A DNA stretch of 64,000 bases from an uncultured bacterium (GTDB lineage: Bacteria; Bdellovibrionota_G; JALEGL01; DATDPG01), in assembly GCA_964397255.1 (NCBI GenBank), contig CAYNHQ010000004.1, positions 186,480-250,479 on the forward strand, given 5' to 3'. Below the pieces are notes generated by a model. The model was not told where the DNA came from, did no database searches, and saw nothing but the letters and a program-made list of their open reading frames with translations. Position 1 is the first letter of the stretch, and every line of letters starts with the position of its first letter. This document shows, one piece after another, positions 3,489 through 61,474 of the stretch. The position numbers and the translations under genes were made by a program.

Positions 3489-3829
3489 CTCGCCTGCCCG
3501 GAATGAATGGCCTTTGTCAGCTGGTTGAGGTTGTTCCCGACGCGAGCAAGCTCTTGATACGCGGATCTATTGATCTCGGGTGCGGGAAGAGGCGGAAGTC
3601 TACGCTTCAATACCGCCCGCCGGACGTATTCGCTCAGGCTTAGGTGGAAAGCTCGAGCGCTCATTCCGATCTCTTTTCGTTCTTCCGGCGTGAACCGAAT
3701 GGGAACGACGCGAGTCCTCCCGCGAACGGAGTGAGTGGGACCGCAAATCGACGTAGTCGGTTTGCATGGCTCGCTACTCACTTCTTCCCACATTCTTTCC
3801 CCCTGCTTCTCTTCCCATTTCTTTTTCAT
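3404..3829 (-). CDS. mobC: Relaxosome accessory protein MobC (ribbon-helix-helix mobilization protein)
   Basis: VVPIRFTPEERKEIGMSARAFHLSLSEYVRRAVL...YQELARVGNNLNQLTKAIHSGQ matches the MobC signature (RxTxEE...SxSEYIR...GNNLNQ). Start taken at the internal ATG at 3827-3829 (MKKKWEE). The upstream part of the 276-aa ORF overlaps a plus-strand gene and is judged non-coding. Confidence 0.7.
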   Translation of the reverse strand: MKKKWEEKQGERMWEEVSSEPCKPTTSICGPTHSVRGRTRVVPIRFTPEERKEIGMSARAFHLSLSEYVRRAVLKRRLPPLPAPEINRSAYQELARVGNNLNQLTKAIHSGQASCVGVGLLEEISAAVQNLALNVLASRLA

Positions 3830-3926
3830 CTTTTTGTCTTTTCTCTCTACGCATCTGTGATATAACACATTTGAGGTACACCGTGTCAACGCATAGTTAC
3901 GTGATAAAATATAACGTTTTAAGCCT

Positions 3927-4760: not shown

Positions 4761-4776
4761 TGGAGATCAAAACTCA

Positions 4777-8439: not shown

Positions 8440-10032
8440 ATGTCGACCGAAATCCAGTCCGTAGGGAACCTCTCAGACACCCCCCTCCTTCAATTATTTC
8501 GATGGGTTACCGAGAACCACTATAGCGGGGTCATGATTCTTGCCCACGACGAAGTGAAGAAATCGATCATTTTTGAAAAGGGCCAGATCATCTCCGCTCG
8601 TTCCAACATTATGTCGGAGTGTCTTGGGCAGCTCCTGCTCGCTCAAGGGAAGATTACTCAAGCTCAGCTCACTCAATCGCTGACCAAAACCGATGCACAG
8701 GAATCCATGCGACATGGAGAGGTGTTGATTGCGATGGGACTAATCGACCATGCCCTTCTAAATGATTTTCTTCGAAGACAAGTGGAAGTACGAATCGAAG
8801 AAATTTTTTCCTGGAAAGAAGGGAAATACGGCTTTGTTGAGAAAATTCCGGAGGATGCGGCCCGCGTAAAAATCGAAGGCACACTTCTTGAGATCGCTCT
8901 TAGGGGTCTAATTCGGCGATATTTGAAACAAGAAGATACGAAAGCGCTGAGTCTTGATTTAAAGCCAATTTCGATTGGAGGACATGGTATTGAAATTGAG
9001 CAACTGAAATTAGTGGGTCGAGAGATGAGTCTGTTGAGAGCTGTTTCTGGTGTGTCGACAATGAAAGATATTATTACGAAGTCACGAATGGATGAGCCCA
9101 TGGCACGCGCAATGTTTCTGGCATTTCGCGACTTCGGAATGATTCGAATCGGCGACACCGCTCCGCAAACTTCTCCCAGCACCCGATCTACCCCTCCGCC
9201 CCCACGCGAATCTTCAAAGCCGGCCCCTGCGCCATCATCTGCCACCGCATCGAAGCCGAGTACTCCGGCTCCGCAGACCCCGGCCACCAAAGGATTTAAC
9301 CCGGAGGAAATAGCCGATCGACTGGCCGCCGCGCAAACGCAAACCCTTTTCGATCTCTTAGGGGTTCCGCGACAGGCGACAACCGACGATATCAAGAAAG
9401 CCTATTTCGATCTTGCCAGGAAGTACCACCCCGATCGCTTGCCACCGAACATGTCCCCCGAAGATCGAAAAAATGCGGAAGCTCTATTTGCTCGAATTAC
9501 CGAAGCACAGACCAGGCTTACCAATCCTTCTTCGCGAAAAGAATATGAGGCCTCACTTGAATTGGAGGCGAGCGGGGTCGGGTCGGGACAAGTGAATGCG
9601 GTCCTGGAATCGGAGGCGGAGTTCCAGAAAGGGACGGCTCTTTTGCGGAAGGGGGATTTCAAAGGAGCTATGGAGGCTTATCAAAAAGCAATATCGCTTT
9701 ACGAAAAAGAACCCGAATATTTTTCACAGCTGGGTTGGGCGATGTTTCGTCAGTCGGCGAAGACGAAAAATGCCGCGGAACATGCGAAAGCAAAACGGGC
9801 GGTGGAGACGTCGATCAAGATGAATCCGAATTTGGCGCAATCGTATTACTACCTGGGCATGATCACGAAGACCGACGGCGATCTCGAAATGGCCAAGAAA
9901 CTGTTCAATAAAGCGGTAGAAATGAATCCAAAAAATGCGGAAGCGACTTCCGAACTCCGACTCATCAATTCGCGTCTGGAGAAGGAACATAAGGGAGGAC
10001 TTAAAGGGCTCTTTAAGAAAAAGGAAGCATGA
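8440..10032 (+). CDS. DUF4388-like N-terminal domain / J-domain (DnaJ) / TPR-repeat protein
   Basis: J-domain YFDLARKYHPDRLP (HPD motif). Pro/Ser-rich linker. C-terminal TPR-like repeats (AMEAYQKAISLYEKEPEYFSQLGWA..., AQSYYYLGMITKTDGDLEMAKKLFNKAVEMNP). N-terminus resembles the DUF4388/PATAN fold (from memory). Confidence 0.65.
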   Translation: MSTEIQSVGNLSDTPLLQLFRWVTENHYSGVMILAHDEVKKSIIFEKGQIISARSNIMSECLGQLLLAQGKITQAQLTQSLTKTDAQESMRHGEVLIAMGLIDHALLNDFLRRQVEVRIEEIFSWKEGKYGFVEKIPEDAARVKIEGTLLEIALRGLIRRYLKQEDTKALSLDLKPISIGGHGIEIEQLKLVGREMSLLRAVSGVSTMKDIITKSRMDEPMARAMFLAFRDFGMIRIGDTAPQTSPSTRSTPPPPRESSKPAPAPSSATASKPSTPAPQTPATKGFNPEEIADRLAAAQTQTLFDLLGVPRQATTDDIKKAYFDLARKYHPDRLPPNMSPEDRKNAEALFARITEAQTRLTNPSSRKEYEASLELEASGVGSGQVNAVLESEAEFQKGTALLRKGDFKGAMEAYQKAISLYEKEPEYFSQLGWAMFRQSAKTKNAAEHAKAKRAVETSIKMNPNLAQSYYYLGMITKTDGDLEMAKKLFNKAVEMNPKNAEATSELRLINSRLEKEHKGGLKGLFKKKEA

Positions 10033-12708: not shown

Positions 12709-13493
12709 AGCGAGCTCTCGATGGAAAGAGGGTGGTACTGACTCGTCCACGAGATGCCGGAGATGTTTGGAGAAAAGCGTTTGAGCAACATGGAGCGGAG
12801 GTGATTACGATTCCAGTCACGGAGTTCGCACCTCCCAGTTCCTGGGAAGAAGCTGATCGGGCGATTGAAGAATTGACGAGCTTTCGATGGGCCGTCTTTA
12901 CCAGTCAGGAAGCGGTTCGGCGATTGTTCGGTCGACTGCGGGAAAAAGGGAAGCCTTGGCCTATGCGAATGCGAGTGGCCGCAGTCGGTGAAAAAACGGC
13001 GGCCGAGCTAACTTCGGCCGGCTATCGTCCGGAAGTTATTCCCGAAAGCGCCAATGGGAGCGAAGCTCTCGCGAAAACCATTTTGAATCGCGGGCCGATC
13101 AACGGCGTTGCCATTTTGTTTCCCCGTGCCGAAGAGGGCAGCGAGACATTGATCGATGAACTCAAACGATTCGGGGCTACGGTGGTGATGGTCCCGGTAT
13201 ACAGAACTGAAACCAACGCCAAATCAGGTCAGGCGGTTCGGAATCTCCTCCGCCAAAATATCCATTGGGTCACTTTTGCCTCCGGTTCAGCGGTTCGTGC
13301 TTTCTTTTCCCTCGGGGGGAAAGGTGCTGTACTTTCTTGGATTCACGAAAAGGGTATAAGGATCGCGGTGCTGGGTGCAACGGCTGCCGAGGCTCTTTCC
13401 AAGCAGGGGGGAGCGTGTACCGTACGTGCATCACACCCCACCGTGGAGGCGTTGGTGGAAACCGTCGTGAACTATGAAAGTGAGACAGGATGA
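12705..13493 (+). CDS. hemD: Uroporphyrinogen-III synthase
   Basis: HEM4-like. Start at the internal ATG (MKRALDGKRVVLTRPRD) overlapping the hemC stop as ATGA. The track ORF from 12492 has a spurious R/G-rich extension. Confidence 0.8.
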   Translation: MKRALDGKRVVLTRPRDAGDVWRKAFEQHGAEVITIPVTEFAPPSSWEEADRAIEELTSFRWAVFTSQEAVRRLFGRLREKGKPWPMRMRVAAVGEKTAAELTSAGYRPEVIPESANGSEALAKTILNRGPINGVAILFPRAEEGSETLIDELKRFGATVVMVPVYRTETNAKSGQAVRNLLRQNIHWVTFASGSAVRAFFSLGGKGAVLSWIHEKGIRIAVLGATAAEALSKQGGACTVRASHPTVEALVETVVNYESETG

Positions 13494-14907: not shown

Positions 14908-16132
14908 GGGAATGAAAGACAAAGCCGGTCATGACTTTGGGGTAAAAGAAAGTTGATTTTTGGGGAAGAACCTCACCCCGTTTTGCCATTTCGATGACTT
15001 GTTCCACTCGCAGCGGCTTTAGCCAAAAGCCGATGCGATGGGGACTTTTCGTGAGTTCCACCACTTCATTCGCCGATTTTACAAATTGGATCTTGCGCTG
15101 ATCTTCCGGGTGCTGGAGGTCAAGACCAAAAATGGGTTTCATGATTTCGTGATTGAGAATTTCTGTCGGCAACATCGAAGATGGTTGTTTGGGCGTCAGT
15201 AGGGTCATCGTTGACTGACGGCCATCAATCCAGGCTATCGGAGCGTTCGCCATCGTGAAATGCTTTTCCTCGAGGGGCAATTCGTTCAAATGAAAATGAG
15301 GCAGCAACTTTTTGTCCAACTCCTCTTTGGAAAATGTCGTCGAGAGTACACGATGAATCGCGCCCAGGACCAAACCCGGATCGGGAGCCGTGGCCAAATA
15401 GGTGAGCATGAAACGGGATTCAGGCAGGCGATGGCCCTCCTTCTCCGCGAAATGAAGCGCGGTGGCGTAGCGATGATGACCGTCGGCGATCAAAAAGGGG
15501 ACATCTTTCAAGATTCGCTGAATTTCAGCCGTCATCAGTGGAGAGGAAATTCTCCAAAAGCGGTGTTCGATTTTTTCATCACGGTTCGCAAATTGAACGA
15601 GTGGTGGAAAAGAGGTGGTTCGGTCTAAGAGGGCCGACATCGAATGAGAGGGATCTTCGGCGATTAAATAAATGGGGCTTAAGTGGGTTTGAGTCTCCGT
15701 TAAAAGTTTGAGGCGATCTTCAATCGGTCCTGCAAGTGTTCGCTCATGTGGGAGAATGTTTCCTCTTCCCAACGTTTCCAATTCGACAAGGCCGATGATC
15801 CCGCGGCGTTGAAGTCGAGTCCCCTTCCACTCAAAGCTGTCCTCTACGACATAAGAGGATGGTTCTTTCTCCTGCTCGAGAGTGCCGTCTTTTTTCCACG
15901 CTGCTAGCGTCTCTGCGGCTTTACGGTAACGGGAAACATCTTCTTGTTCGGCCTTTGTCAATGTAAAGGGATCGCCCAAAATCAGGCGTATTACATTTTG
16001 GGGGTGTCGCACATGGAGTGCCTCACACTGCGATCGCGAAATGACATCATACGGGGGCGCTATGACGGCAGAGAAGTCGGATAGTTTGGAAAGATCATAG
16101 CGGAGACCTCGGAAAGGAAGGAATCGGGCCAC
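14900..16132 (-). CDS. DUF1015 family protein
   Basis: Conserved ADGHHR motif (FLIADGHHRYATA), recalled from memory as the DUF1015 signature. Confidence 0.65.
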   Translation of the reverse strand: MARFLPFRGLRYDLSKLSDFSAVIAPPYDVISRSQCEALHVRHPQNVIRLILGDPFTLTKAEQEDVSRYRKAAETLAAWKKDGTLEQEKEPSSYVVEDSFEWKGTRLQRRGIIGLVELETLGRGNILPHERTLAGPIEDRLKLLTETQTHLSPIYLIAEDPSHSMSALLDRTTSFPPLVQFANRDEKIEHRFWRISSPLMTAEIQRILKDVPFLIADGHHRYATALHFAEKEGHRLPESRFMLTYLATAPDPGLVLGAIHRVLSTTFSKEELDKKLLPHFHLNELPLEEKHFTMANAPIAWIDGRQSTMTLLTPKQPSSMLPTEILNHEIMKPIFGLDLQHPEDQRKIQFVKSANEVVELTKSPHRIGFWLKPLRVEQVIEMAKRGEVLPQKSTFFYPKVMTGFVFHSLS

Positions 16133-16749
16133 TACTTCTTCTTCTCTAAAGCTCCTACGATCACATCCCAGGGGATCGCGCCTTCACGAAGGAGCTCAGG
16201 CGGGCGCTTCGTACAGTCGATGACCGTGGAGGGGGGTAGGCCTGTCGCCGGCCCCGCATCCAGAACCATAAGATCCGGGTGATGAAACATTTTTCTCACT
16301 TCTTCGGGTGTGGCCGCAGGAATTTTTCCCGAAGGATTCGCACTTGTCGTCGTCATCGGTTTGCCGAATTGTTCCGCGAGAGCTTTGGCGACAGGATGGT
16401 CGCTCACGCGGAATCCAACCCCTCCGCTCGGACCGCGAAGATCCTCCGAAAATCGAGAGGCGGGAACAATGAGGGTCAGAGCTCCGGGCCAGAATTTTTT
16501 AGCCAGCAGTTTCGCCTCAGGAGAAACTTCGTCGGCATATTCGGGAAAGAGGGCGGGTGTGGGGAGGAGAAGAGGGAAGGGCTTGCCTTCGGGACGACCT
16601 TTTAATTCCCGAAGACGTGCAAGGGCCTTGGGGTCAAGAGCATTCACACCCAGGCCGTAGACCGTTTCGGTGGGATACGCGACCATTTTTCCCGATCGGA
16701 GCCATTGAATCGTCGCCGCAAGATCTGGAGATTTCAGAGAGCTCGCCAA
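16132..16749 (-). CDS. tsaC: L-threonylcarbamoyladenylate synthase (Sua5/YciO/YrdC family)
   Basis: YPTETVYGLGVNALDPKALARLRELKGR...PLLLP... is a YrdC-domain signature. Confidence 0.8.
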   Translation of the reverse strand: MASSLKSPDLAATIQWLRSGKMVAYPTETVYGLGVNALDPKALARLRELKGRPEGKPFPLLLPTPALFPEYADEVSPEAKLLAKKFWPGALTLIVPASRFSEDLRGPSGGVGFRVSDHPVAKALAEQFGKPMTTTSANPSGKIPAATPEEVRKMFHHPDLMVLDAGPATGLPPSTVIDCTKRPPELLREGAIPWDVIVGALEKKK

Positions 16750-48225: not shown

Positions 48226-48804
48226 ATGCGAAAAATCATTGGAGTGAGTTCACTGGTACTTCTTTTTGCGGGATGTGTGGCGAGTACAAACCGGGTGGAT
48301 GTGACTGCCGACGAGCCTTTTTCGGACACCCAAACGGGCAGCAAAGATCTCCTCGCGGTGGCTCAAAACATGTCGCGATCGATGATCCAACTTCCACAAA
48401 TTGCGAACGCAAAAACCCCACCTCGCATTGCTTTTGCCGATGTGAAAAATGAAACGAATGAAATTATTAACAAGAATCTCTTTATCGAAAAAATGCGAAC
48501 CCTTCTTTTGAAGAATGCCTCGGGGAAAATGGTTTTTCTGGATCGCGAATTGAGCGAACAAATCGCGAAAGAACGGGAGGCCAAACGGAAAGGCGAAATC
48601 ACCAGTTCAGGCTCGAAAATGAAATCGGGCGCGGACTATTTTCTGACCGGTAAACTTTCGTCCATCGACAAGGTGGCGGGAGGAACCCGTTCCACGTATA
48701 CCCGCTATGCCTTTCGTCTCACCGACGCCGAATCAACCGACATCCTTTGGGAGGATGAATACGAAGTGAAAAAGATCGGTGAGGCGGGATTGTACGATCG
48801 ATAA
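48226..48804 (+). CDS. LpoB-like (penicillin-binding protein activator family, COG3417-like) lipoprotein
   Basis: RBS aggagg upstream. Lipobox LFAGC. C-terminal ADYFLTGKLSSIDKV...YTRYAFRLTDAESTDILWE pattern resembles LpoB (from memory). Confidence 0.4.
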   Translation: MRKIIGVSSLVLLFAGCVASTNRVDVTADEPFSDTQTGSKDLLAVAQNMSRSMIQLPQIANAKTPPRIAFADVKNETNEIINKNLFIEKMRTLLLKNASGKMVFLDRELSEQIAKEREAKRKGEITSSGSKMKSGADYFLTGKLSSIDKVAGGTRSTYTRYAFRLTDAESTDILWEDEYEVKKIGEAGLYDR

Positions 48805-48816
48805 CCCCGGACCTCA

Positions 48817-49968
48817 GTGAACCGAATTTGCGCTGCCGTTCTCTTTCTGAGCGGCGCGCTGATGGCCTGCAGCACTCATCTTCCAGCGGCGGGAGTCAAA
48901 GCCTACGATGCCTGCGACTATGCTCGAGCCACGAAAGTCTTTGAAGGAAAGGCGAACGAAGGGGACAAGAATTTTGTTCTTTATAATTTAGCGATTCTAA
49001 GTTCCGCCATCCATGGTGGGGATGAGGAAAAAGCGGAAAAAGCTTCCCAAGCCGCGCAGCAAACCATGTGGAGTGATGTCGGAAAGGGAAGAGGCGAAGC
49101 CAGCCTGGTCAGTGCCGAAGCGATTAAAATTTTTAAGGGTGAGCCTTTTGAAAAGGCGATGGCAGCCATCTATGGCGGGATTATCTATTATAATAAGGGG
49201 GACTACGATAATGCGCGCGCTTCATTTACCAAGGCGACGCTGGCGATTAAGCAAAAAGAGAAAAACCGCGACGACTTTGCGTTGGCCTATCTCCTCTTGG
49301 CGAAACTGGCGTTTAAGTTGGGAGAAGATGACAACGCCCGAATCGCGCTTGAGAATGTGAAGAAGGTTTATCCCCATCATCCCCTTCTTTCTCCGGAAAA
49401 ACTAAAAGCGGCGAATATCATTTTTCTCGCGGAGCTGGGAAAAATGCCGGAAAAGGTTCGAAAGGGGCCGGGAGGAAGTTTGATTGAATGGCAGCGGCGG
49501 AATTATCCGGAACGGGGAGTGGAGATTGAGATCGACGGAGCCGCCAAAGGAGAGGGAGCCGAGATCGCGGATCTAACCAATCAGGCAAGATCAAAGGGAT
49601 GGACTGGAAAAGACACAGTACAAATTACGAAGGGGATCACCCATGATGCCGCGGCTGCGACCACAGTGATTGCTGCGAATGAAGCGGCAAAGGGAAATGA
49701 AACGGCGGGTTGGGTGGCGCTGGGTGCCGGTCTCTTTATGTTGGCGGATCAGTCGAAAGCCGACACACGCGAGTGGGAACTGTTGCCTGATCGCATTCTC
49801 ACGTTTGGAACTCATTTGGCACCGGGCCGGCATGAGGTGAGAGTTCGATTTTACGCCGAGGGAAAGTCTCCTCTTCCCCGATACGATCAGCTCTGGTACT
49901 ACGACATACAAACGGGAGAGGAACGGATGGTTTTGGTCCGTGGACAACCGTGTCCACCGAAATCTTAG
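48817..49968 (+). CDS. Hypothetical large lipoprotein (COG4259-like?)
   Basis: Lipobox LMAC. 383 aa of mixed alpha/beta composition. Follows the LpoB-like gene with a 12-nt gap. Confidence 0.4.
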   Translation: MNRICAAVLFLSGALMACSTHLPAAGVKAYDACDYARATKVFEGKANEGDKNFVLYNLAILSSAIHGGDEEKAEKASQAAQQTMWSDVGKGRGEASLVSAEAIKIFKGEPFEKAMAAIYGGIIYYNKGDYDNARASFTKATLAIKQKEKNRDDFALAYLLLAKLAFKLGEDDNARIALENVKKVYPHHPLLSPEKLKAANIIFLAELGKMPEKVRKGPGGSLIEWQRRNYPERGVEIEIDGAAKGEGAEIADLTNQARSKGWTGKDTVQITKGITHDAAAATTVIAANEAAKGNETAGWVALGAGLFMLADQSKADTREWELLPDRILTFGTHLAPGRHEVRVRFYAEGKSPLPRYDQLWYYDIQTGEERMVLVRGQPCPPKS

Positions 49969-49982
49969 GGATGGAGGTTAAA

Positions 49983-50372
49983 ATGAAGCGACTATTGATT
50001 GGAATCTTTTTAATTGCGGGGCTGGGGTGCGGTCCATATAAGCCGACTTCCAGTGAAACGCCTCTCCAAGAAACTGAAAAGGTGTTGCTTCTGGATCATG
50101 GATTGACCTACCGGATTCATGTCGTGAAAGAAGCCAGCACCCGTCTCGCCGGAGGCCAGTTCGAAGTCAAAATGGAAATTGAAAACAAATGGAATGACGA
50201 TGTGTGGGTCGATATTCAGACGATTTTCCGTGGAACCGATGGATTTGAAATAGAAAAGACCGACTGGGAGCCTTTCTTGCTCCATCGCCGGACGGTCACT
50301 TTGTTTCAAAGAAACTCACTCAATACCGCCGCCGCCGACTACCGCATTCTGATCCGGAACGTCAGAAATTAG
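49983..50372 (+). CDS. Small lipoprotein, YcfL/DUF1425-like
   Basis: Start at the internal ATG MKRLLIGIFLIAGLGCG (lipobox). ~130 aa, all-beta-like composition. Confidence 0.35.
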   Translation: MKRLLIGIFLIAGLGCGPYKPTSSETPLQETEKVLLLDHGLTYRIHVVKEASTRLAGGQFEVKMEIENKWNDDVWVDIQTIFRGTDGFEIEKTDWEPFLLHRRTVTLFQRNSLNTAAADYRILIRNVRN

Positions 50373-50425
50373 GCCGTATCTTGACTGCCGAAGCGACCTG
50401 CCGTCATTGCTCGATTTCATGTAGG

Positions 50426-50455
50426 TTGACACAAACATATACACATTTATATACT
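50426..50455 (+). promoter_or_regulatory. Sigma70-like promoter (TTGACA-18-TATACT) driving the toxin-antitoxin operon, apparently leaderless
   Basis: ttgaca at 50426-50431 and tatact at 50450-50455. The antitoxin ATG at 50462 is about 7 nt downstream. Confidence 0.35.
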
Positions 50456-50461
50456 CGTGGT

Positions 50462-50737
50462 ATGAAGAAGGTGAATGCACTGACTTTGCGGCAATCTCTG
50501 GGTAAGGTCCTGAGGGACCTTGCCCGAAATGAGGGTCCGATTCTCGTGGAAAAAGGGCGGGAGCCCGCGGCCGTGCTGATCTCGGTGAAGGACTTCCGCG
50601 AACGATTCGTAGATAAACATGCCGCCGAGGAACGCAAGACCCTGGTCGAACACATGATCGCCCTACGAAAACGGAAAGGGAAGTCTAATACGAGCTCTCT
50701 CGACATTTTGAGAAGTCTTCGAGGCCCTCTGCCTTGA
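50462..50737 (+). CDS. Type II antitoxin, Phd/YefM-like
   Basis: MKKVNALTLRQSLGKVLRDLARNEGPILVEKGREPAAVLISVKDF is the Phd/YefM fold signature. Overlaps the PIN toxin by ATGA. Confidence 0.6.
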   Translation: MKKVNALTLRQSLGKVLRDLARNEGPILVEKGREPAAVLISVKDFRERFVDKHAAEERKTLVEHMIALRKRKGKSNTSSLDILRSLRGPLP

Positions 50738-51138
50738 TTCGGGTAGTCGATGCCTCCGTTGCGACCAAATGGTTTCGGGAAGAAAAGGGCTCCGATCGAG
50801 CGCGTGAATACTTGTTTGAAATACAGGAACGTCCGGAGGCATTTGCAGTCCCCGAGCTTTTCTTCTTTGAAGTACATGCCGTCCTTCTTCGGTTGTTGGA
50901 GGCGAGGGATGTGGAGGAAGCCCTTCAAGGCCTATTGAAACTTGGTGTAAGGCGCTATCCAATGGATGAAGGCCTCTCCCATTGCGCTTGTGAAATTGTT
51001 TCCAAATTCAAGTTGACGGGATACGACGCTGCTTACGCGGCCCTGGCTAAACTCCTTCGAGGTAAGTGGTTGACTTTCGACGGCGAAGCCGTCAGCCGGC
51101 TGCAAGGAGCGAACTACGCGCTCTGTCTCGATTCCTAA
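50734..51138 (+). CDS. vapC: PIN-domain toxin VapC
   Basis: MIRVVDASVATKWF...ELFFFEVHAVLL...GYDAAYAALA... carries the acidic PIN residues. Confidence 0.75.
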   Translation: MIRVVDASVATKWFREEKGSDRAREYLFEIQERPEAFAVPELFFFEVHAVLLRLLEARDVEEALQGLLKLGVRRYPMDEGLSHCACEIVSKFKLTGYDAAYAALAKLLRGKWLTFDGEAVSRLQGANYALCLDS

Positions 51139-51167: not shown

Positions 51168-52058
51168 TCAAAATCCCCCCGTCATTTTGAGGGCGATGGG
51201 GACGAAGAGAAGGATAAAGACGACTGGAAAAATACATATAATGAGGGGGGCGAGCATTTTCACGGGGGCTTTTTGAGCGAGAGCTTCGGCTTGGCTGAAG
51301 ATTTCGCGGCGCAGAGTTTCCGATTGAAGGCGAAGTAGGCTTCCTAAGCTCGATCCAAGCTGCTCCGATTGAGCGATACTGGAAGCCCAGAGGGACATGG
51401 CCTCGACCCCGGTTCGATTCGCCATATCCTGGAAAGCTACGGAACGAAGCGTTCCCATTCGAATCGATTTCAATGTGATGAGAAGCTCTTCCCGCAACGG
51501 ATTGTTTTGATCTCGCCCTACCACCTCTTCAATTGCTACGATCAAATCGAGACCAGCTTCGAGGGCGAGGGTGATGAGATCCAGGTAATAAGGGAAGCAC
51601 AGCACAATCGCCCGTTGCCGTTTTCGGATCTGACTATTGAGAGTTTGAGCCGGGAGAAAATAGCCTGCGGTGGCAAACAGGATCGCTAGGAAAGGAGTAT
51701 CGAGTACGGACCAAAAAACCAACCCGAGGATACTTCCCCCCACGCTCAACAGAATTTGTTTCGCTAGAAAATGTGGCGCTTCTCCAGCCGGTCTTCCAGC
51801 CCGCTCCAATTTCTTCGCGAGTCCAGCGAATATTGTGGGTGAAACGCGGCCGGTCAGCCACTGGCTGAAATCCGCCGATAATCGAGTGCTTCCCTGTTTT
51901 GGGTTTTTGAAAAGTTGGGGGTTGACTCCCGCAGGAACCCATTTCGCCAATCGTGTGCGGTATCCCCAAATGAGATATCCGAGCGCCGAACCCCAACAAC
52001 CAATAGCCAATAATTCCATCATCGGATGAGCTCCATTTTGCTGATCTTGTAAACCCAT
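51168..52058 (-). CDS. tadC: Tad/type II secretion system F-family inner membrane protein TadC
   Basis: T2SSF-like: ...LITLKSIRMGTLRSVAFQDMANRTGVEAMS... with 3 TM segments. Confidence 0.7.
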   Translation of the reverse strand: MGLQDQQNGAHPMMELLAIGCWGSALGYLIWGYRTRLAKWVPAGVNPQLFKNPKQGSTRLSADFSQWLTGRVSPTIFAGLAKKLERAGRPAGEAPHFLAKQILLSVGGSILGLVFWSVLDTPFLAILFATAGYFLPAQTLNSQIRKRQRAIVLCFPYYLDLITLALEAGLDLIVAIEEVVGRDQNNPLREELLITLKSIRMGTLRSVAFQDMANRTGVEAMSLWASSIAQSEQLGSSLGSLLRLQSETLRREIFSQAEALAQKAPVKMLAPLIICIFPVVFILLFVPIALKMTGGF

Positions 52059-52957
52059 GTTCCGCCGACGCTGAGAAGAACGATCGATACGGCGATCGCC
52101 AAGTGTCCCGCCGATGTTCGGAAAAGTGGGGAAAGATAGTCGGGTGCCAAAAAATTCATTCCAACCGTCAGTAAAATCGGCATAGCGATCGCTACCATCG
52201 CCTGCACTTTCCCCTGCGCCGTTAAAGCCGTGAGGCGGTCTCGAAGCGCAGCTCGCGCCCGGATCATCTCCGCTACGCGATCAAAAGCTTCGGAAAGGTT
52301 CGATCCGACACGCCGAGAAATCGAAACGGCGCTCGAGACCAGCTCCAGATCACGGCTCGGATAGCGAAGGCAGAGATTCTTCATCGCCTCTTCCATTGTG
52401 GTTCCCAGACGCAGCTCCTTTGCGACGATCTGGAATTCCTGAGAAAGTGGAGCAGGCTGCGTTCGAATCAGTGATTCAATCGCGCGATCAAATGTATGCC
52501 CCGCATGAAGAATGGCCGAGAGCTGAGGCAGGACCAAACCAAATTGCTTCTGAAAAAGTGTCTGGCGGCGGTTTCGAATATGCCGTAAAAGTAAAATCGG
52601 TATTCCGATCGCAAGGAGGAGCGAGCCAAAGAAGGGCCATGGCGAAAGGGTAACAAACGAGACGAGGCCACCAACGGCAGCCATACATAACAAGCTTTTT
52701 CTTAGCGCCGTCGGATTTACAAAGAGAAATTGTTCTGAGAGCCCGTATCGAACATTTTCTTCCCATTCATTCTCCACCACCAAAAGCTTGGTTTGATAGC
52801 GGCTCACCAGGTTCGTGGCGATCCAAAAAAGAGATGCCGCGATAAAGAGAGCGCTAAGCCAAAGCACGGAGTTCTCCAAGGTTGAGGATATCCACAAAAC
52901 GCTGGCGTTCCTGAGACGAAAGCTGGTCGGCGAATCGGGGAAGACGTCCGGTGGCAT
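52019..52957 (-). CDS. tadB: Tad/type II secretion system F-family inner membrane protein TadB
   Basis: T2SSF-like. Probable GTG start near 52863-52866 (VLWLSALF...), giving a short overlap with cpaF. The track start at 52957 overlaps cpaF by 104 nt. Confidence 0.7.
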
Positions 52958-54140
52958 GAAGCCCTTCCACGCCGGGGCGTCGAAGAAAGAGATCCTGCGA
53001 TTGAATCGTTCCGTCCTCGGTTCCGCAAATTTCCGTCACATGCGTCACTTTTCGAGTTCCATCGGAGCATCGAGCCTGAAAGACGATGAGGTCGATCGCA
53101 CTGGCGATCTGTTCGCGAATCGCGCGCAGCGGGAGATCGAAACCTGCCATCATCACCATGGTCTCCAGGCGAAGAAGGGCATCGCGCGGAGAGTTCGCAT
53201 GAGCGGTAGTGAGCGAACCATCATGGCCAGTGTTCATGGCTTGAAGCATGTCGAGAGCTTCGCCCCCACGGCATTCGCCCACGACAATCCGATCGGGGCG
53301 CATGCGGAGGGCATTGCGGACAAGGTCACGGATGGAGACCTCTCCACGACCTTCAACATTTGCCGGGCGAGCTTCCAGCGAAACCACATGAGGTTGCGGA
53401 AGTTTCAATTCGGCGGCGTCCTCTACCGTCAAAATTCGTTCATGACTTGGGATGAATCCTGAAAGAGCGTTGAGAAGAGTCGTTTTTCCCGAACCGGTTC
53501 CTCCTGCGATCAAAACATTCTTTCGAATACGAACGGCATCATTAAGAAAAAAGGCGGCTTGTTTGGTGAGCGAACCGAATTCAATGAGCCGTTCGACGGA
53601 AATGGGGGTCTTTGAGAATTTTCGAATGGTGATCGTAGGTCCATTTAGCGCGAGCGGCGGAATAATGGCATTCACCCGTGAACCATCGGCCAGACGTGCA
53701 TCGACCATAGGAGAAGACTCATCGATTCGACGGCCCAGAGGAGTGACGATTCGATCGATGATCGTCCGGAGAGATGCATCGCTCGAAAACGTCGCCAGAG
53801 TCTGCTGAATCTTTCCTTTTTGTTCGATAAAGATTCGATCTTTGCCGTTTACCATGATTTCCGTAACGGTCGGATCGCGAAGCAGCTTTTCCAAGGGTCC
53901 GAGTCCGACGGCTTCGTCGACAATGTCGGAAACCAATTCGTCGTCTACGGAGAGACGACCCTGGGCATCGATTTTGTCGAGACATTGTTTGACCAGCGCT
54001 TCGACTTTGGCACGCAATTCGGGACCTCGAAGCTGAGCGTAGTCGGTCTTTCGAAGATCGATGATCTCCAGAAGGTTGTTTAAGAGAAACTCCTTCGATC
54101 GATTCCGAACATTTTGTGAAAGGGTGGTGTTCATGATCAA
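52854..54140 (-). CDS. cpaF: Tad/Flp pilus assembly ATPase CpaF/TadA
   Basis: Walker [18 protein letters not shown]; secretion ATPase Asp/His boxes. Confidence 0.85.
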
Positions 54141-55540
54141 TCCAGAATCGAGAGTTTGAGTTCCTTATCAAACCGCTTGGAGTGCTCATCCGCTTTCTTA
54201 AGCGTCTGTCGTGCGACCGTACTGGTTGCATCTCCAGAGAATGGGGTAAGGAAGATGACGAACTCAGATTCATTTTTCTGAAAGGATCGGCTTTTGAATA
54301 GCTCACCCAAAATCGGCACGTGTCCGAGGAAGGGAACTTTCTCCACATTCTTGCGGGATCGATCTTCAATTAAACCTCCCAGGACGATCGTGTCGCCCAA
54401 GCGGAGATTTGCCGCAGTTTTGACTCGATGTTCGAGGATGCCGGGAATGTTGTCGATCGCCGTAGAGGAATCGAGATCGGAAATTTTGCTTTCAATTTCA
54501 AGATAGACTCTTCGCGACTGGTCGATCTTTGCCTTGATTTCGAGTTTTACACCGTACTCTTTGAAGATGACGTCCGCTGTGCGTTCCCCCACGACTCGAA
54601 TCGGGATTTCGCCCCCTGCGAGGAAGGATGCGGGCGTTCCGTTCCGACAGAGAAGCTTGGGGTTGGAAAGAACCTTGGCAAGCCCTTTGGCGACCATGGC
54701 TTTGAGGTTCAGGGTGGGTTTTTCGCCCCCGATATTGATGATTCCCGACCAACCGGCCCCGCCGCCGAAACTAGCTGAAGCGTCACTTGAAATGCTGTTC
54801 GGCCAATCGAGACCCACGTCACCGAGAGAATTTTTTCGGATCTCCATCATCTTCACATCCACCAAGATCAAAGGCTCGGCGGACACGCCGACGGAAATGG
54901 AATTGGAAACTTTGGAATAAATGGATTTCGCGAGATTCTCCGCGCGTGCGATATCGCCTTTGCGCGATACTTCTCCTTCCAGAAAAATCGTGTCGACTTC
55001 GCTCCGGACGGTTACTTGCTCAAGACCCGCCTTTTCAAGCCGCTCGGCGATCTGATGCCCCATGTATTCCAGCGCCTGAGGATTTACACGTGTATTGTCC
55101 TTCACATTGGAATAATTCTTCGTAATTTTCGCGATCTTTTCGAGATCTTCGCCTCGGAACACCTGTCCTTCGAGTGTTAAATTTCCTCCTGTTCTTCGAA
55201 GCGAGACCCCTTCCATTCCATCGAGCATTGCCCGCACTTCCTGTTCGATATTTCTTCCTTTCGTATTCACTTCGATGAGATAGGATTTTTTCGATCCATC
55301 TCGAAACCAAAGGATGAGATCCGTAGTGCCTCGTTTAGCGCCGGTCACAATGACTTGTTGAGCATCGGGGAGGGCCTTCACGTCCGCCACATCGGGGTCA
55401 CCGATGGCCGCGCGCTTTACTCCGGGGGATGAAATCACATGTTGACGGCCGGGAGCGATTGTGATCGTTTCCGCCGCCTTCGCCGATGTGATGCATAAGA
55501 GACTCAAAAGAATTTGAAATATTTTTTTCGCGTTTTTCAT
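54137..55540 (-). CDS. cpaC: Secretin CpaC/RcpA (type II/III secretion secretin family)
   Basis: Signal peptide, BON-like N-domain, C-terminal secretin motif [30 protein letters not shown]. Confidence 0.8.
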
Positions 55541-55720
55541 ACCCCCTGCTATGGCAATCGAAGTGCCAACGCGCGAAAACGCGCAACTGCTTGATATAAA
55601 AGGAATAAAATCTCAGACTCTTCGGCATGACTGGACGAAAGAAAGTCAACAGAGATCGATTTTCGGACGGAAGAAAATCTCTCTTGGGTCATACCGTTTT
55701 CCAGCTAGAATCGCGGTTCC

Positions 55721-56809
55721 TTGAATACCGTTGAGCAATTATTACGAAAGCTTCCTGAAATGGGGGCTTCCGACCTCCATATCGCGGCCAGCATGCCCCC
55801 CTTGGTTCGCGTGCATGGCCTGCTAAAGCCTCTGTCTGTACCCCCATTCCGACCGGAAGAAACCGAACAAATGATCGGTGCGATACTAAATGACGAACAA
55901 AAAAAGGGATTTTCGGAGAAGTGGGATATCGATTTTTGTTACGAGATTCCGGAAGTCGGTCGTTTTCGCGCTAACGTGTTGCGACAGCGTAACGGCATGG
56001 ATGCCGTTTTTCGTTATATCCCAAACAAGATTCCAACGCCGAAGGATTTGGGACTTAACGACACGATTGTTAATTTCGTGAATTTAAATCAGGGGCTCAT
56101 CCTGGTTACGGGACCGACTCGGAGCGGAAAGACCACCACTCTGGCAGCGCTCATTCAAACCATTAATGAACGAGAGCCGGTTCATATTATTACGGTGGAA
56201 GACCCGATAGAGTTCATTTTCCCTCCCGGCCGTGCGCTGATCAATCAGCGCGAGGTGGGAAAACACACCAAGAGCACGGCCGCTGCTTTGCGTGGAGCCC
56301 TACGCGAAGACCCCGACATTATTATGGTGGGCGAAATGCGGGATCTGGAAACCATTTCGCTCGCGATCTCAGCCGCGGAAACGGGTCACTTGGTATTGAG
56401 CACGCTTCAAACGCAAAGCGCCCACAAGACCGTCGATCGAATTGTGGATTCGTATCCGGCGACTCAGGCCTCGCAAATTCGAACCATGCTTTCCGAATCT
56501 TTACGAGGAATCTGTTCACAGCAGTTGTTAAAGAAGGCCGACAATAGTGGCATGGTCTTAGCGACGGAAATATTGGTCACGACCACATCCATTTCAAATC
56601 TCATTCGCGACGGAAAAACCTTCCAGATTCCCTCCATCATGCAAACGGGTGCCACTTTGGGAATGAAAAAGATGGATACCGCTCTTGCAGAATTGGTTCG
56701 CGACAAGGTGATTACAAGAGAAGAGGCTCTGCGGGCCGCGCATCACAAGAAGGAAGTGGATGCGCCCCTCGCGGTAAAGAAAACAGGAGTTCAGCGTGGC
56801 CAAGCTTGA
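55721..56809 (+). CDS. pilT: Type IV pilus retraction ATPase PilT family
   Basis: Walker A GPTRSGKTT; Asp box IITVEDPIEF; His box; PilT C-terminal region. Confidence 0.85.
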   Translation: MNTVEQLLRKLPEMGASDLHIAASMPPLVRVHGLLKPLSVPPFRPEETEQMIGAILNDEQKKGFSEKWDIDFCYEIPEVGRFRANVLRQRNGMDAVFRYIPNKIPTPKDLGLNDTIVNFVNLNQGLILVTGPTRSGKTTTLAALIQTINEREPVHIITVEDPIEFIFPPGRALINQREVGKHTKSTAAALRGALREDPDIIMVGEMRDLETISLAISAAETGHLVLSTLQTQSAHKTVDRIVDSYPATQASQIRTMLSESLRGICSQQLLKKADNSGMVLATEILVTTTSISNLIRDGKTFQIPSIMQTGATLGMKKMDTALAELVRDKVITREEALRAAHHKKEVDAPLAVKKTGVQRGQA

Positions 56810-57848
56810 TCGACTCTTTATAGAGCTTAAGGAACGGGGGGCTTCGGACCTTCATCTCTCCGTCGGATTTCCCCCAATGCTGCGTGTTCATGGCGAAGTT
56901 ATGCCGCTTAAAATTCCGCCTCTCACCGATGATCAACTGAAACAGTTGGTATTTGAAATCATGCGACCCGAGCAAGTTGAAATCGCCACGCGGGAATGGG
57001 ATCTCGATTTTGCCTATTCCATTGAAAATGTGGCGCGATTTAGAGCCAACGTTTTTTTCACACATCGCGGTATGGCCGCAGTGTTTCGTATCATTCCCGC
57101 CGAAATCAAGCACATCGATGCGATGGGATTTCCTCCCGCGGTTAAGAAATTAGCGGAACTTGAAAAGGGAATGGTCTTGGTGACGGGCCCGACGGGAAGC
57201 GGAAAGTCGACGACTCTCGCTTCAATGATCAACCACATCAATGAAACACGGGAAGCGCACATTATCACGATTGAGGACCCCATTGAGTTTGTTCATCCAC
57301 CGAAGAAGTGTCTGGTGACGCAAAGGGAAGTTCATTATCACGCGCGAAGTTTCGCTACCGCTCTTCGAGCAGCTTGTCGGGAAGATCCCGATGTCATTTT
57401 GGTGGGCGAAATGCGCGACGTCGAAACCATCGGTCTTGCGCTCACTGCCGCAGAATTAGGAGTCCTCATTTTCGGTACGTTGCATACCAATAGTGCAGGA
57501 AAAACCGTGGATCGAATCATTGATGTTTTTCCGGTAGAAGCACAGGCGCAAGTGCGAACAATGCTTGCCGATTCTCTCAAGGGTGTGATTGCGCAACAGT
57601 TGATTCGAACATCGGATGGCAGAGGAAGGGCAGCGGCGCTTGAAATCATGGTCGGGGGGTCGGCGCTGGCGAATTTAGTCCGAGAAGGGAAAACGACTCA
57701 AATCGCTTCCATGATTCAAACAGGTGCCTCGGAAGGAATGGTCTTAATGGATCAGTCGCTCATGGCGCTGGTAAAAGCGGGAAAGATTGATCGGCAGGAG
57801 GCCGCATTGAGGGCAATGGATAAAAAGCCATTCGAGACAACCGCATGA
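56796..57848 (+). CDS. pilU: Second PilT-family ATPase (PilU-like paralog)
   Basis: Walker A GPTGSGKST; IITIEDPIEF; GEMRD. 14-nt overlap with the first pilT. Confidence 0.8.
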   Translation: MAKLDRLFIELKERGASDLHLSVGFPPMLRVHGEVMPLKIPPLTDDQLKQLVFEIMRPEQVEIATREWDLDFAYSIENVARFRANVFFTHRGMAAVFRIIPAEIKHIDAMGFPPAVKKLAELEKGMVLVTGPTGSGKSTTLASMINHINETREAHIITIEDPIEFVHPPKKCLVTQREVHYHARSFATALRAACREDPDVILVGEMRDVETIGLALTAAELGVLIFGTLHTNSAGKTVDRIIDVFPVEAQAQVRTMLADSLKGVIAQQLIRTSDGRGRAAALEIMVGGSALANLVREGKTTQIASMIQTGASEGMVLMDQSLMALVKAGKIDRQEAALRAMDKKPFETTA

Positions 57849-58312
57849 GTCAATTTCTTATTAAAAAAACCAAGAGAGAAGTTGTGCTTCATGTGGCGGG
57901 GCACAAACCGATCAAGGGGAATGTATTTCTTAGCGAAGTGACTACCGCGCATCACGGGGCAGAACGTGTGTTGGATGTGCTAGCGGCGCCCGAGCCTTTT
58001 ATCGCCTTCGAAACGGAGAAAAAAGATTTTTGGATGGTTCAAAAAAAGGCGATCGAAAAAATTGTCGTGGATGCAGAATACGAACTCGAAATTATGAGAT
58101 CATACGGTGCCGGCGTGGCCAAACTCAAAGACGTGCTTGTGGTGATGACGGACGGGAAGGAAGAACTCGGCGTGGTTTGGGTGGAATCGCAGGAGCCGTG
58201 GAGGGCATTTGATGAGGTCAACCGGAGCAAAAATTTTCTGTTATTGGATTGCGGAAAGAGCGTTCAACTGATCGGATTTGCTTCAATCGCGACGATTAAG
58301 GAACCGCCTTAA
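57845..58312 (+). CDS. Hypothetical protein translationally coupled (ATGA) to the second PilT paralog
   Basis: 155 aa, no recognisable domain. Confidence 0.35.
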   Translation: MSQFLIKKTKREVVLHVAGHKPIKGNVFLSEVTTAHHGAERVLDVLAAPEPFIAFETEKKDFWMVQKKAIEKIVVDAEYELEIMRSYGAGVAKLKDVLVVMTDGKEELGVVWVESQEPWRAFDEVNRSKNFLLLDCGKSVQLIGFASIATIKEPP

Positions 58313-59617: not shown

Positions 59618-61474
59618 TTATTTTTTCCATGTCGCGGCCAGTGTTTGTGAAATCTCTCTCTTCATAGCCATAATTCGCCCTTCGAGCGCCTCATGTTCGC
59701 TAACGAGATTAGCCACTCTGTTACGTGAACGCAGGTTGGCGGACAAATATTGAAGGGCTCTTTTAGCTTCTTGAGGTTCCGTGTTCATAGATTGCCTCGC
59801 CCATTTTAATATCTCTTCATAATGCGCGATTTCAACATGGGTAAAGTCACTCTTGCACTTTAATTCTTTTTCGCGAAGGGCTGAGAGCATTTCTGATTTA
59901 CCTGGAGAATATTGCATGCTCTGAACTCTCGATTTATCAGCTTCTATACTTTGGAGTTCAGCACTGAGCGATTCCATTTCAGGTGTCGCGGACGTAATCT
60001 GCCATGAAGGTTTTGTCGGGATACTTGAGGTTTTTAAAGAAGAAACTGAAACTTTCTCAGTGTCCATATTGCGAATTCGTACGAGCAAAGCTTCGGCGCG
60101 GTTGACTACCGCAAACTTTCCTGTGCGCTTGGCTCTCATAATTTGGGCTACAAATGTTTCTCTTTCAGCAAGTGGTAGGCTTGCACGACCGTTTAATGTT
60201 CGCTCAATATTGGTTAGGTCGGTCCTCGCACGTTCCTCATCGACCACAAAACCATTCCCCTTCCAATCAGCCAATTCATCAATTTTTTCTCGTCCACTTT
60301 GGGTACCAAATTCACGGTCACTTTCATGGTTTTTGACCGATCCATTTGAATTCTTCCCAAAGGTGAATTCTTTTCTAGTGGAGTCTCCGAAAAGCGCGAC
60401 CATCGGTAATGATTTTCCTAAAGAAACTAGCACAGAGGGACCTTTGGGGAATGTCAGTTCAGTAGCGAGTTTCAAAGGTGTCGATCGCATCTCGATCGCC
60501 GCACCCGCAAGCGCGGGAGCTAGCGCTGGTGGCGGAGAAAAGCGTTCGTTAAGGAACGCTTTTGTATCTCTGATGAGAGCCGCCGTGTCTTCAGTAAGGA
60601 TAGTCCTCCCAAGCCGCCCCACTCCCAACCCACCTTGAAGAACACTATAACCCGCAAAAACGAGATCAGTTTCGGCTTCCAGGAATTCGGCCACATTTTT
60701 TGCTTCCGCAGCTCGTCTTCCGGGATCCAGAAACATGGAACTTACAATTGCGGTTGTTGTCCCCTTTGCCATATCTGGAATGGAAATCCCCGCTTCATGG
60801 GCTTCACGAATTCCAATAAAGACCTTGGCGATGATCCCTTGTGGAGCGTAATTCTTCCTGGAAAGGAGAACCATGTCGAACACATTGGCCCCCGTCAGAG
60901 CCCAAATCCCCTCCGCCGTTATCTTAGTAACCACTCGTTCCGGAATCGTCGAAGCTACGAATGCTCTTTGAAGAAAAGGCGCTCTGTCCCATGCCTCATG
61001 CCTGCGAATCTTGTCGTAGGCCACATCATAAGAACCGTCTTCGATTCGAAATACGACGGCAGACCCGTCTCGATTGGAAATCGCCTTAAAAATTAATGCG
61101 TGATCGGTTTGGTGGATCAATTCGCACGTTGAATAGAGTTTGGAAATAAACCAAAGAAATTGCTCGCTGTTCGTGAAAGCGGAATCCATAGAGAGAGCCC
61201 GCTCAATGTCCAGCTTTTTTTCGACATCGGGCCTGGCGAAAGATTCGACAGTGGTCTCCGTAGATGCGCATTCGGATGGAGCCGGTCCGGCCCCGCCAGA
61301 CGCATTTGACAGTGACTGAATTCGTTCGGATTCCTCTTTTTCGTCGATCGACGTGTGAAGGATACACTCCAAATTTCTCTCCAACTCACTCCCCCGAACG
61401 GGTCGAAATTCCACAAAATTATGGACCTGTTGGACCGATACGGCGGCAATGGCAGCTGTAAGAACGACAATCAT
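59618..61474 (-). CDS. Hypothetical 618-aa membrane-anchored protein
   Basis: N-terminal hydrophobic anchor MIVVLTAAIAAVSV. No recognisable domain. Ends 2 nt before the rlmD start. Confidence 0.4.
   Translation of the reverse strand: MIVVLTAAIAAVSVQQVHNFVEFRPVRGSELERNLECILHTSIDEKEESERIQSLSNASGGAGPAPSECASTETTVESFARPDVEKKLDIERALSMDSAFTNSEQFLWFISKLYSTCELIHQTDHALIFKAISNRDGSAVVFRIEDGSYDVAYDKIRRHEAWDRAPFLQRAFVASTIPERVVTKITAEGIWALTGANVFDMVLLSRKNYAPQGIIAKVFIGIREAHEAGISIPDMAKGTTTAIVSSMFLDPGRRAAEAKNVAEFLEAETDLVFAGYSVLQGGLGVGRLGRTILTEDTAALIRDTKAFLNERFSPPPALAPALAGAAIEMRSTPLKLATELTFPKGPSVLVSLGKSLPMVALFGDSTRKEFTFGKNSNGSVKNHESDREFGTQSGREKIDELADWKGNGFVVDEERARTDLTNIERTLNGRASLPLAERETFVAQIMRAKRTGKFAVVNRAEALLVRIRNMDTEKVSVSSLKTSSIPTKPSWQITSATPEMESLSAELQSIEADKSRVQSMQYSPGKSEMLSALREKELKCKSDFTHVEIAHYEEILKWARQSMNTEPQEAKRALQYLSANLRSRNRVANLVSEHEALEGRIMAMKREISQTLAATWKK

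Follow-up and report, generated by a model that had tools for sequence, protein, structure and literature searches.

In the canonical Tad/Cpa loci, exemplified by cpa of Caulobacter and tad of Aggregatibacter, the genes encoding the secretin, the motor ATPase and the two platform proteins follow the order secretin-ATPase-tadB-tadC, and TadZ and TadV are present. CpaF is described as a bifunctional motor (PMC6920026). In Bdellovibrio bacteriovorus the tad genes are dispersed, a duplicated rcpA-tadA module is dispensable for predation, TadV is lacking and Flp1 is processed by PilD (10.64898/2026.07.08.737194; PMC5430801); the rcpA2-tadA2 module of this bacterium has been described as possibly unrelated to Tad (10.64898/2026.07.08.737194). 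Tandem genes for PilT paralogues have been described in Myxococcus xanthus: MXAN_6705, which has a long N-terminus, and MXAN_6706 are conserved across the Myxococcales, and deletion of MXAN_6706 leads to a partial S-motility defect (PMC13584747).

Here we describe a locus of an uncultured bacterium that, to judge from one named relative, belongs, as does B. bacteriovorus, to a Bdellovibrionota-like lineage. The stretch of DNA that was analysed, 64,000 nucleotides long and hereafter called the window, contains a Tad core in the canonical gene order that, unlike the canonical loci, is accompanied by neither TadZ nor TadV, and that is divergent from an operon encoding two PilT-family ATPases:

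51168..52058, minus strand: TadC-like platform protein, single T2SSF domain (3.3e-15)
52019..52957, minus strand: TadB-like platform protein, single T2SSF domain (2e-18)
52854..54140, minus strand: CpaF/TadA-type ATPase, T2SSE domain (4e-66); the database call is 426 aa, with its start at 54134
54137..55540, minus strand: CpaC/RcpA-type secretin, 467 aa, with signal peptide and the Pfam domains T2SS-T3SS_pil_N, BON and Secretin
55541..55720: divergent intergenic region of 180 bp, the spacer between the two operons
55721..56809, plus strand: PilT-family ATPase paralogue 1 (PilT1), 362 aa, TTG start, TIGR01420 449 bits
56796..57848, plus strand: PilT-family ATPase paralogue 2 (PilT2), 350 aa, TIGR01420 462 bits
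57845..58312, plus strand: cytoplasmic tandem DUF6812-like protein of 155 aa, weak Pfam DUF6812 match, ATGA overlap with pilT2

Two divergent operons and a Tad core without pilin

An ORF check of the window found all seven genes at these coordinates, and the minus-strand genes cpaC-cpaF-tadB-tadC are tightly coupled, each overlapping or abutting the next. A first-pass annotation had described contiguous and overlapping secretin, ATPase and platform genes, divergent from an operon of two PilT genes followed by an ATGA-coupled 155-aa gene, and the ORF coordinates, the Pfam and NCBIfam matches, the TIGR01420 scores and the ATGA overlap bear out both halves of this description. It had likewise reported that the 180-bp region upstream of cpaC contains no pilin-like ORF, and this is the case: ORFs within 55541-55720 are at most 57 aa long and all non-hydrophobic. 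A sigma-70 consensus scan gave no match in this spacer, the genome-wide counts of the same scan being at the level of shuffled sequence.

The four minus-strand genes encode ordinary components of the Tad/Flp (type IVc) pilus system. The protein encoded by 54137-55540 combines the pilus-N and BON-like domains of an RcpA/CpaC secretin (T2SS-T3SS_pil_N, PF13629, 1.8e-15; BON, PF04972; Secretin, PF00263, 1.7e-38). The ATPase is a motor of the CpaF/TadA type, as its T2SSE domain indicates; among NCBIfam models the TadA family TIGR03819 matches it best (344 bits, under the equivalog cutoff of 373), its best solved relatives are the CpaF structures of C. crescentus (397 bits), and its translation contains recognisable Walker A (GGTGSGKTT), Asp box, Walker B and His box motifs. 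The platform is split between a TadB-like and a TadC-like protein with one T2SSF domain (PF00482) each. The TadB-like protein is 44-51% identical to homologues of 282-283 aa in related genomes, and the TadC-like protein 41-57% identical to homologues of 272-288 aa. These lengths suggest later starts for both genes: the true start of tadB is likely GTG 52867 or TTG 52879 (about 282-286 aa), and that of tadC is likely ATG 52022 (about 284 aa). The overlap with the upstream gene persists in both cases.

The remaining Tad parts are absent from the window. Scanning the complete window in six frames for the Flp / type IV pilin motif revealed no pilin, whereas the same scan detects Flp-like ORFs in 38 of 43 other Tad loci among the matches listed, one of which was read directly. 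Pfam scans, which took in essentially all window ORFs of at least 130 aa, gave no match among these ORFs to an A24 prepilin peptidase (TadV/CpaA), to RcpC/CpaB (RcpC/SAF) or to TadE/TadG. Nor is a TadZ/CpaE-like protein encoded by them, since the sole CbiA/ParA-type match is weak (E 2.5e-4) and lies inside an SRP54-type GTPase. Unassigned genes at 31-36 kb were considered as pseudopilin candidates and ruled out (SSB, lipoproteins, a TPR protein and a MoaC-like protein). Thus, the "minimal" module of four core genes reported by the first-pass annotation, which had noted that flp pilin, prepilin peptidase, cpaB and tadZ are missing beside the core, is as bare across the entire 64 kb, and the type IVa pilus genes pilB, pilC, pilMNOPQ and pilA are also absent from the window. 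As in Bdellovibrio, one prepilin peptidase may serve both this block and a type IVa pilus system.

The Tad block in related genomes and in sister loci

The same pilin-less block occurs in four related uncultured genomes, in the same chromosomal neighbourhood and with an ATPase that is 67-76% identical to that of the window, such that the bare secretin-ATPase-TadB-TadC block is kept in five diverged genomes. About 10-20 kb could be seen around each relative's block. The shared neighbours are a TRAM methyltransferase, an LpoB-TPR-DUF1425 lipoprotein trio and gatCAB. The secretin is 49-56% identical to those of the same block in L003-L006, the motif scan found no Flp or type IV pilin in these loci, and neither RcpC/CpaB nor TadZ/CpaE is annotated in the flanks of the relatives. 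What differs from genome to genome is the slot between the methyltransferase and secretin genes, which in the window is occupied by the two pilT genes and the 155-aa gene:

L003 (ATPase 72% identical): block without PilT; slot with a permease and an unknown gene
L004/L005, a Bdellovibrionota MAG (76%): block without PilT; in L004, slot with a helicase, HicAB, an oxidoreductase and a HEAT protein
JGI contig (70%): block without PilT; slot empty
L006 (67%): block without PilT

Hence, PilT genes adjoin the block in none of the four closest related genomes.

A more distant comparison leads to the same result. A scan of genome contigs with CpaF provided 43 sister loci for analysis among the matches listed, all from a clade whose ATPases are 56-63% identical to that of the window; the close clade and the source genome lie outside this set. 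These FHA-CpaF Tad loci (within L013-L092), found in Gammaproteobacteria and other phyla, share the order secretin-ATPase-tadB-tadC with the window, but their ATPases have an FHA domain that the window ATPase lacks, and a Flp pilin gene is present in cis in 38 of the 43 according to the motif scan, whereas the window has none. Two of the sister loci, L043 and L089, were read in detail, and both contain TadG, RcpC and the secretin, with TadE also present in L089. PilT was found within 10 kb of none of the 43 sister loci among the matches listed. When the secretin was used as query in a metagenome scan, a single distant locus was obtained.

The closest parallel for such an arrangement is B. bacteriovorus, in which the Tad-type secretin and ATPase are likewise encoded away from the pilin genes, the tad loci lack TadV, and a secondary module without pilins exists. 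The likeness of this module, rcpA2-tadA2, to the window block is one of gene content, and the window block, unlike rcpA2-tadA2, also has tadB and tadC. Furthermore, the window ATPase is a plain CpaF of 426 aa, whereas B. bacteriovorus has a TadZA fusion. CpaF relatives of 650 aa were considered as possible TadZA fusions of the Bdellovibrio type; one cluster that was checked includes an Armatimonadota member.

The PilT paralogues and their DUF6812 companion

Both PilT proteins are full-length members of the PilT/PilU family TIGR01420, with scores well above its curated cutoff of 319 bits, and they match Pseudomonas aeruginosa PilT with 340 (PilT1) and 375 bits (PilT2). Both proteins retain Walker A, Walker B and the Asp box, but in alignment each lacks one of the two His-box histidines. 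In PilT1 the second is replaced (TLQT), with Q at the position of H229 of P. aeruginosa PilT, and in PilT2 the first is replaced by V (ELGV in place of ETGH). An H229A variant of P. aeruginosa PilT does not support twitching, yet is partly functional (PMC12607626).

The first-pass annotation had left the third gene of the operon as a protein of unknown function. To judge from profile searches, it is a divergent tandem DUF6812 protein. Its direct match to Pfam DUF6812 (PF20660) is weak (18.3 bits, against a gathering cutoff of 27.1), but when its phmmer homologues are turned into a profile, 45 proteins are recovered, the majority of them annotated as PF20660; these relatives came from a full phmmer search, a k-mer-indexed homology search having returned the query alone. 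The protein contains two copies of a unit of about 53 residues, each with a conserved R-x-x-D-x-L-N helix, and is only 25-28% identical to typical members. An AlphaFold model (pLDDT 90.7) predicts two small beta-barrels. No transmembrane segment was found in the protein.

Nor is the protein an orphan, as its relatives accompany PilT-like ATPases outside any Tad context. In three other lineages (L008/L094/L096, L011 and L012), DUF6812 is translationally coupled to PilT-family genes, at a distance of 0-4 nt, and these modules have no Tad genes nearby. The closest DUF6812 homologue with usable context (L097-L100, 40% identical) does not adjoin PilT, and the link between DUF6812 and PilT is therefore frequent rather than universal. 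Among the DUF6812-linked PilT proteins, the best match of PilT2 is the second PilT of L011, a Myxococcales genome (55.8% identical); the two are reciprocal best matches, and both lack the first His-box histidine. L011 also has a tandem PilT pair, its module consisting of DUF6812, a PilT of 696 aa and a PilT of 355 aa. Its first PilT has a long N-terminus and its second is short; as judged purely by architecture, L011 would be the counterpart of MXAN_6705/6706. The window pair resembles MXAN_6705 and MXAN_6706 in that these are two adjacent PilT-family genes apart from the main pil cluster. It differs in that neither PilT1 nor PilT2 has the N-terminal extension of MXAN_6705 and of the first PilT of L011, and the DUF6812 gene comes last in the window operon, whereas it comes first in L011. 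DUF6812 has no described function, and no mention of it was found in the literature searched. A probable role for the DUF6812 protein is to bind or regulate the hexameric PilT ATPases in the cytoplasm.

Relationship between the two operons

The first-pass annotation had proposed that a Tad core paired with PilT/PilU is a distinct variant, with a partly scattered locus as fallback. The first proposal is not supported: PilT is absent beside the block in all four relatives and in all 43 sister loci among the matches listed, and the slot is variable. The comparative data favour the fallback, although we infer where the missing parts would be encoded. Our preferred explanation, which we consider probable, is that two independent units stand back to back: a Tad core with its partners elsewhere, and a separate PilT-DUF6812 operon. 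Because the units look separate and are side by side only in this genome, chance gene order is the most likely origin of the combination of Tad with PilT. In the first unit, an outer-membrane secretin, a hexameric motor ATPase and a split inner-membrane platform would form an envelope-spanning core, whose pilins, prepilin peptidase and accessory proteins would be encoded elsewhere or be common to another type IV filament system; alternatively, the unit may be a secondary module like rcpA2-tadA2. If the block follows the usual mode of Tad systems, both extension and retraction would be powered by CpaF alone, and therefore no PilT would be needed. The second unit would be a separate cassette, presumed to correspond to the tandem PilT paralogues of Myxococcales; the machine that it serves is more probably a type IVa pilus system with genes elsewhere. 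Co-regulation in this organism is possible, since the 180-bp divergent region is common to both operons.

It is conceivable, albeit doubtful, that the block is autonomous and needs no Flp, serving as a conduit for secretion or uptake, or as a motor working with borrowed type IVa (pseudo)pilins; its accessory genes would then have been lost for reasons of function and not scattered. The persistence of the pilin-less, CpaB-less and TadZ-less state in five genomes, the good conservation of the secretin and ATPase with intact catalytic motifs, and the precedent of rcpA2-tadA2 as possibly Tad-unrelated agree with this possibility. The four proteins are, however, ordinary members of Tad-type families, Flp, TadG and RcpC belong to the machinery of the nearest sister clade, and scattered type IV filament genes are common, with the view of each relative spanning about 10-20 kb. 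An extension of this idea, in which the clade's block runs on its own after the loss of Flp, RcpC and TadZ and has here recruited the His-box-variant PilT cassette and the tandem-barrel DUF6812 adaptor as a disassembly or regulatory arm, is very unlikely; more probably, DUF6812 proteins are partners of PilT-like hexameric ATPases and form a class that has yet to be described.

We regard as highly improbable a hybrid machine in which the neighbouring PilT paralogues, together with DUF6812, serve the Tad-like core as dedicated retraction motors, both operons being co-regulated through the common divergent promoter region. The operons are indeed adjacent and divergent with just 180 bp between them, and no type IVa pilus genes in the window lay other claim to the PilT proteins; but the adjacency is missing in the relatives and in the sister loci among the matches listed, PilT-DUF6812 modules elsewhere lack nearby Tad genes, motors of the CpaF type are bifunctional (PMC6920026), and each PilT is devoid of one His-box histidine. 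A decaying, now non-functional remnant of a once complete Tad locus would account for the absence of pilin, peptidase, RcpC and TadZ from the neighbourhood, but is extremely unlikely given the intact, translationally coupled reading frames, the conserved ATPase motifs and the retention of the same four genes in five diverged genomes.

If the explanation in terms of two units is true, this locus would be another case of scattered Tad genes in predatory or Bdellovibrionota-like bacteria, and it cautions against inferring function from one divergent gene pair. The contrast between a clade-wide bare block and a sister clade with the pilin in cis, and with accessory genes in the two loci read, prompts one to ask which Tad parts need to be co-encoded. 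The freshest lead of the locus is the link between DUF6812 and PilT: an uncharacterised protein family that is repeatedly coupled translationally to PilT-like ATPases offers a candidate partner for the "extra" PilT paralogues, which are poorly understood.

Gene content of the Tad block

An ORF map and family scans confirmed all seven genes of the two operons that the first-pass annotation had described, namely a secretin, an ATPase and two platform genes on the minus strand, and a divergent pair of pilT genes followed by a gene for a 155-aa protein.

Tad block genes and pilT genes (positions in the window)
54137-55540, minus: secretin with a signal peptide and pilus-N, BON and Secretin domains
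52854-54140, minus: CpaF/TadA-type ATPase (T2SSE); best curated match, the TadA family
52019-52957, minus: TadB-like platform protein, single T2SSF domain
51168-52058, minus: TadC-like platform protein, single T2SSF domain
55721-56809, plus: PilT1; TIGR01420 (PilT/PilU), 449 bits against a cutoff of 319
56796-57848, plus: PilT2; TIGR01420 (PilT/PilU), 462 bits against a cutoff of 319

The best solved relative of the ATPase is Caulobacter CpaF (397 bits), and Walker A, the Asp box, Walker B and the His box are all legible in its translation. Judging from homologue lengths and alternative start codons, tadB probably starts at 52867 or 52879, and tadC at 52022; with these starts, each still overlaps the gene before. 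The block contains all the core parts that a Tad machine needs to span the envelope, and no filament parts.

The claimed absence of pilin, peptidase, cpaB and tadZ genes beside the block, and of a pilin-like ORF in the 180-bp spacer between the operons, was borne out: a six-frame motif scan of the entire 64 kb detected no Flp or type IV pilins, and Pfam scans of the other genes in the window (housekeeping genes, transporter genes and a mobile element) detected no A24 peptidase, RcpC, TadZ-like ParA or TadE/TadG. Genes of unknown function at 31-36 kb were considered as pilin candidates and rejected as not pilin-like. The left end of the window (566-6243) holds a mobile-element-like cluster encoding a tyrosine integrase, a MobA/VirD2 relaxase, a NikA-like protein and a Schlafen/AlbA_2-HATPase_c_4 protein. 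A haem-biosynthesis gene cluster is preceded by the gene for a protein (8440-10032) in which DUF4388 is combined with a DnaJ domain and with TPR repeats.

As a control we used 43 loci, each 15 kb or longer, from among the matches listed from the genome collection, which come from the sister clade only; their ATPases are 56-63% identical and mostly FHA-CpaF fusions. A metagenome scan gave almost no matches. The listed control loci contain a secretin gene (40/43), tadB (42/43), tadC (38/43) and an Flp-like ORF (38/43); the two read in detail carry Flp, TadG-like, RcpC/CpaB, secretin, FHA-CpaF, TadB and TadC genes, and the gene that comes next encodes DUF192 in one locus and TadE in the second. 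Because the same scan finds Flp-like ORFs in most of these loci, and the blocks of close relatives also lack them, the lack of pilin and accessory genes next to the block is a real, clade-wide feature and not a scan failure.

Conservation of the block in related genomes

The closest ATPase relatives are 63-76% identical, about 420 aa long and all from uncultured genomes, the best named one being a Bdellovibrionota MAG. Neighbourhoods were recovered for four of them (loci L003, 72% ATPase identity; L004/L005, 76%; a JGI contig, 70%; L006, 67%). Exactly the same secretin-ATPase-T2SSF-T2SSF order is present in all four as a stand-alone block, with no Flp-like ORF in the locus and no PilT gene within 10 kb of the block. 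In most of them, tblastn confirmed the flanks seen in the window, where a gene for a TRAM-domain RNA methyltransferase lies beyond the secretin gene, and the genes of an LpoB-TPR-DUF1425 lipoprotein trio plus gatCAB lie beyond tadC. The slot beside the secretin gene is variable, being empty in the JGI contig, where the methyltransferase directly abuts the secretin gene, and occupied by a permease and a gene of unknown function in L003, by helicase, HicAB, oxidoreductase and HEAT-protein genes in L004, and by the pilT-pilT-155aa operon in the window, whose 280-kb contig (NCBI MAG) is also present in two SRA runs.

The predicted lipoproteins of the trio (LpoB-like, TPR, DUF1425/YcfL-like; window 48226-50372, L003:16959-19131, L006:14167-17003) each have a lipobox; the trio is syntenic with the block in four of five genomes, convergent to tadC, with a CsgG-like gene added in two, and may be a functional partner, such as a TadD-like pilotin, or a case of inherited synteny. 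Toxin-antitoxin pairs lie in the variable flanks (window Phd/PIN, 50381-51138; L006 BrnT/BrnA, 12885-13269; L004 HicAB, 2816-3429). Two relatives have a gene for a c-di-GMP enzyme downstream of tadC: in L004/L005 an EAL gene follows immediately (L004:10151-11491), and in L003 a GGDEF gene lies at a distance of about 2 kb (14975-16675); none is found near the window's block. A 618-aa protein (59618-61474), whose gene has the TRAM methyltransferase gene on one side and an AcrB-family gene on the other, matches no Pfam or NCBIfam family and is predicted to lack transmembrane segments; both SRA-derived contigs also contain it.

Relationship between the Tad block and the PilT operon

The locus belongs to known kinds of system, and we consider it probable that the Tad block and the PilT-DUF6812 operon are two independent neighbours. 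The block would then be either a secondary module or the central part of a Tad system whose genes are scattered. It fits the pattern of Bdellovibrio bacteriovorus, whose tad repertoire is unusually dispersed, with tadC away from the main locus; this species has no TadV, its T4aP peptidase PilD processes Flp1, and its duplicated rcpA-tadA module is dispensable for predation, expressed differently and possibly Tad-unrelated (bioRxiv 10.64898/2026.07.08.737194; PMC5430801). The first-pass fallback of a partly scattered locus is supported by the comparisons. It is rather unlikely that the block is an autonomous pilin-independent device.

Although the two operons are divergent neighbours in the window, a PilT gene is absent from all 43 listed control loci as well as from the four relatives, so among the genomes compared the adjacency occurs in this one alone. 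The proposed unusual Tad-plus-PilT combination is therefore unsupported, and a true Tad-PilT hybrid is very improbable. Caulobacter CpaF powers extension and retraction alike (PMC6920026), and a Tad core thus does not require PilT. We give the least credence to a decaying remnant.

PilT paralogues and the DUF6812-like protein

Both PilT proteins have P. aeruginosa PilT (PaPilT) as closest solved relative, and each lacks one of two conserved His-box histidines: PilT1 reads TLQT versus consensus TLHT, with Q at the PaPilT H229 position, and PilT2 reads ELGV versus ETGH, losing the first histidine. PilT1 also carries an R in Walker A (GPTRSGKT). These residues may hint at a specialised or heteromeric role of the paralogues. 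The PaPilT H229A variant shows no twitching and keeps partial function (PMC12607626). Among the DUF6812-linked PilT proteins, the best match of PilT2 (55.8%) is the second PilT of locus L011, from a Myxococcales MAG (L011:8544-9611), which also lost the first histidine (ETGA). In L011, DUF6812 is followed by a PilT of 696 aa, with a long extension at its N-terminus, and then by one of 355 aa, an arrangement that resembles the M. xanthus tandem paralogues MXAN_6705/6706. These are reported to be conserved throughout the Myxococcales; the N-terminus of MXAN_6705 is long and disordered, and S-motility is partially defective when MXAN_6706 is lost (PMC13584747). From this architecture, we infer that the L011 pair is their equivalent.

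As first described, the gene for the 155-aa protein (57845-58312, plus) is joined to pilT2 by an ATGA overlap. An indexed search had given the impression that its product is an orphan, which exhaustive phmmer ruled out (42 relatives); a profile built from the relatives retrieved 45 proteins, mostly carrying Pfam DUF6812. The direct DUF6812 match is sub-threshold, and the 53-residue model is matched by relatives in one half, the other half or both. In the confident AlphaFold model (pLDDT 90.7, pTM 0.85), the protein folds into a tandem of small beta-barrels, and both barrels have a short helix bearing a conserved R-x-x-D-x-L-N motif; fold searches gave generic Sm/Hfq/Rof-like barrel matches only, and no transmembrane segment is predicted. 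The gene shares 4 nt at the stop codons with the convergent methyltransferase gene (58309-58312), leaving no terminator space.

Elsewhere, in the L008/L009/L010/L094-L096 group, L012 and L011, which represent three lineages, a spacing of 0-4 nt separates a DUF6812 gene from one of the PilT/PilU family (TIGR01420, 434-472 bits), with no further pilus genes nearby. PilT proteins coupled in this way are extended at the N-terminus by 120-300 aa that match no Pfam family (L096:6445-6735; L008:6473-6890; L011:6453-7350); one of these extensions is very weakly similar to the N-domain of PilT (18.6% identity, E 7e-4), hinting at a duplicated N-domain. Among DUF6812 homologues with usable context, the closest (40% identical, L097-L100) has no adjoining PilT gene, and the literature searched contained no mention of DUF6812. 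We propose the DUF6812-PilT partnership as a lead, from gene linkage only; this recurrent coupling of tandem-barrel proteins to PilT-like ATPases is the most useful new lead to come from the locus.
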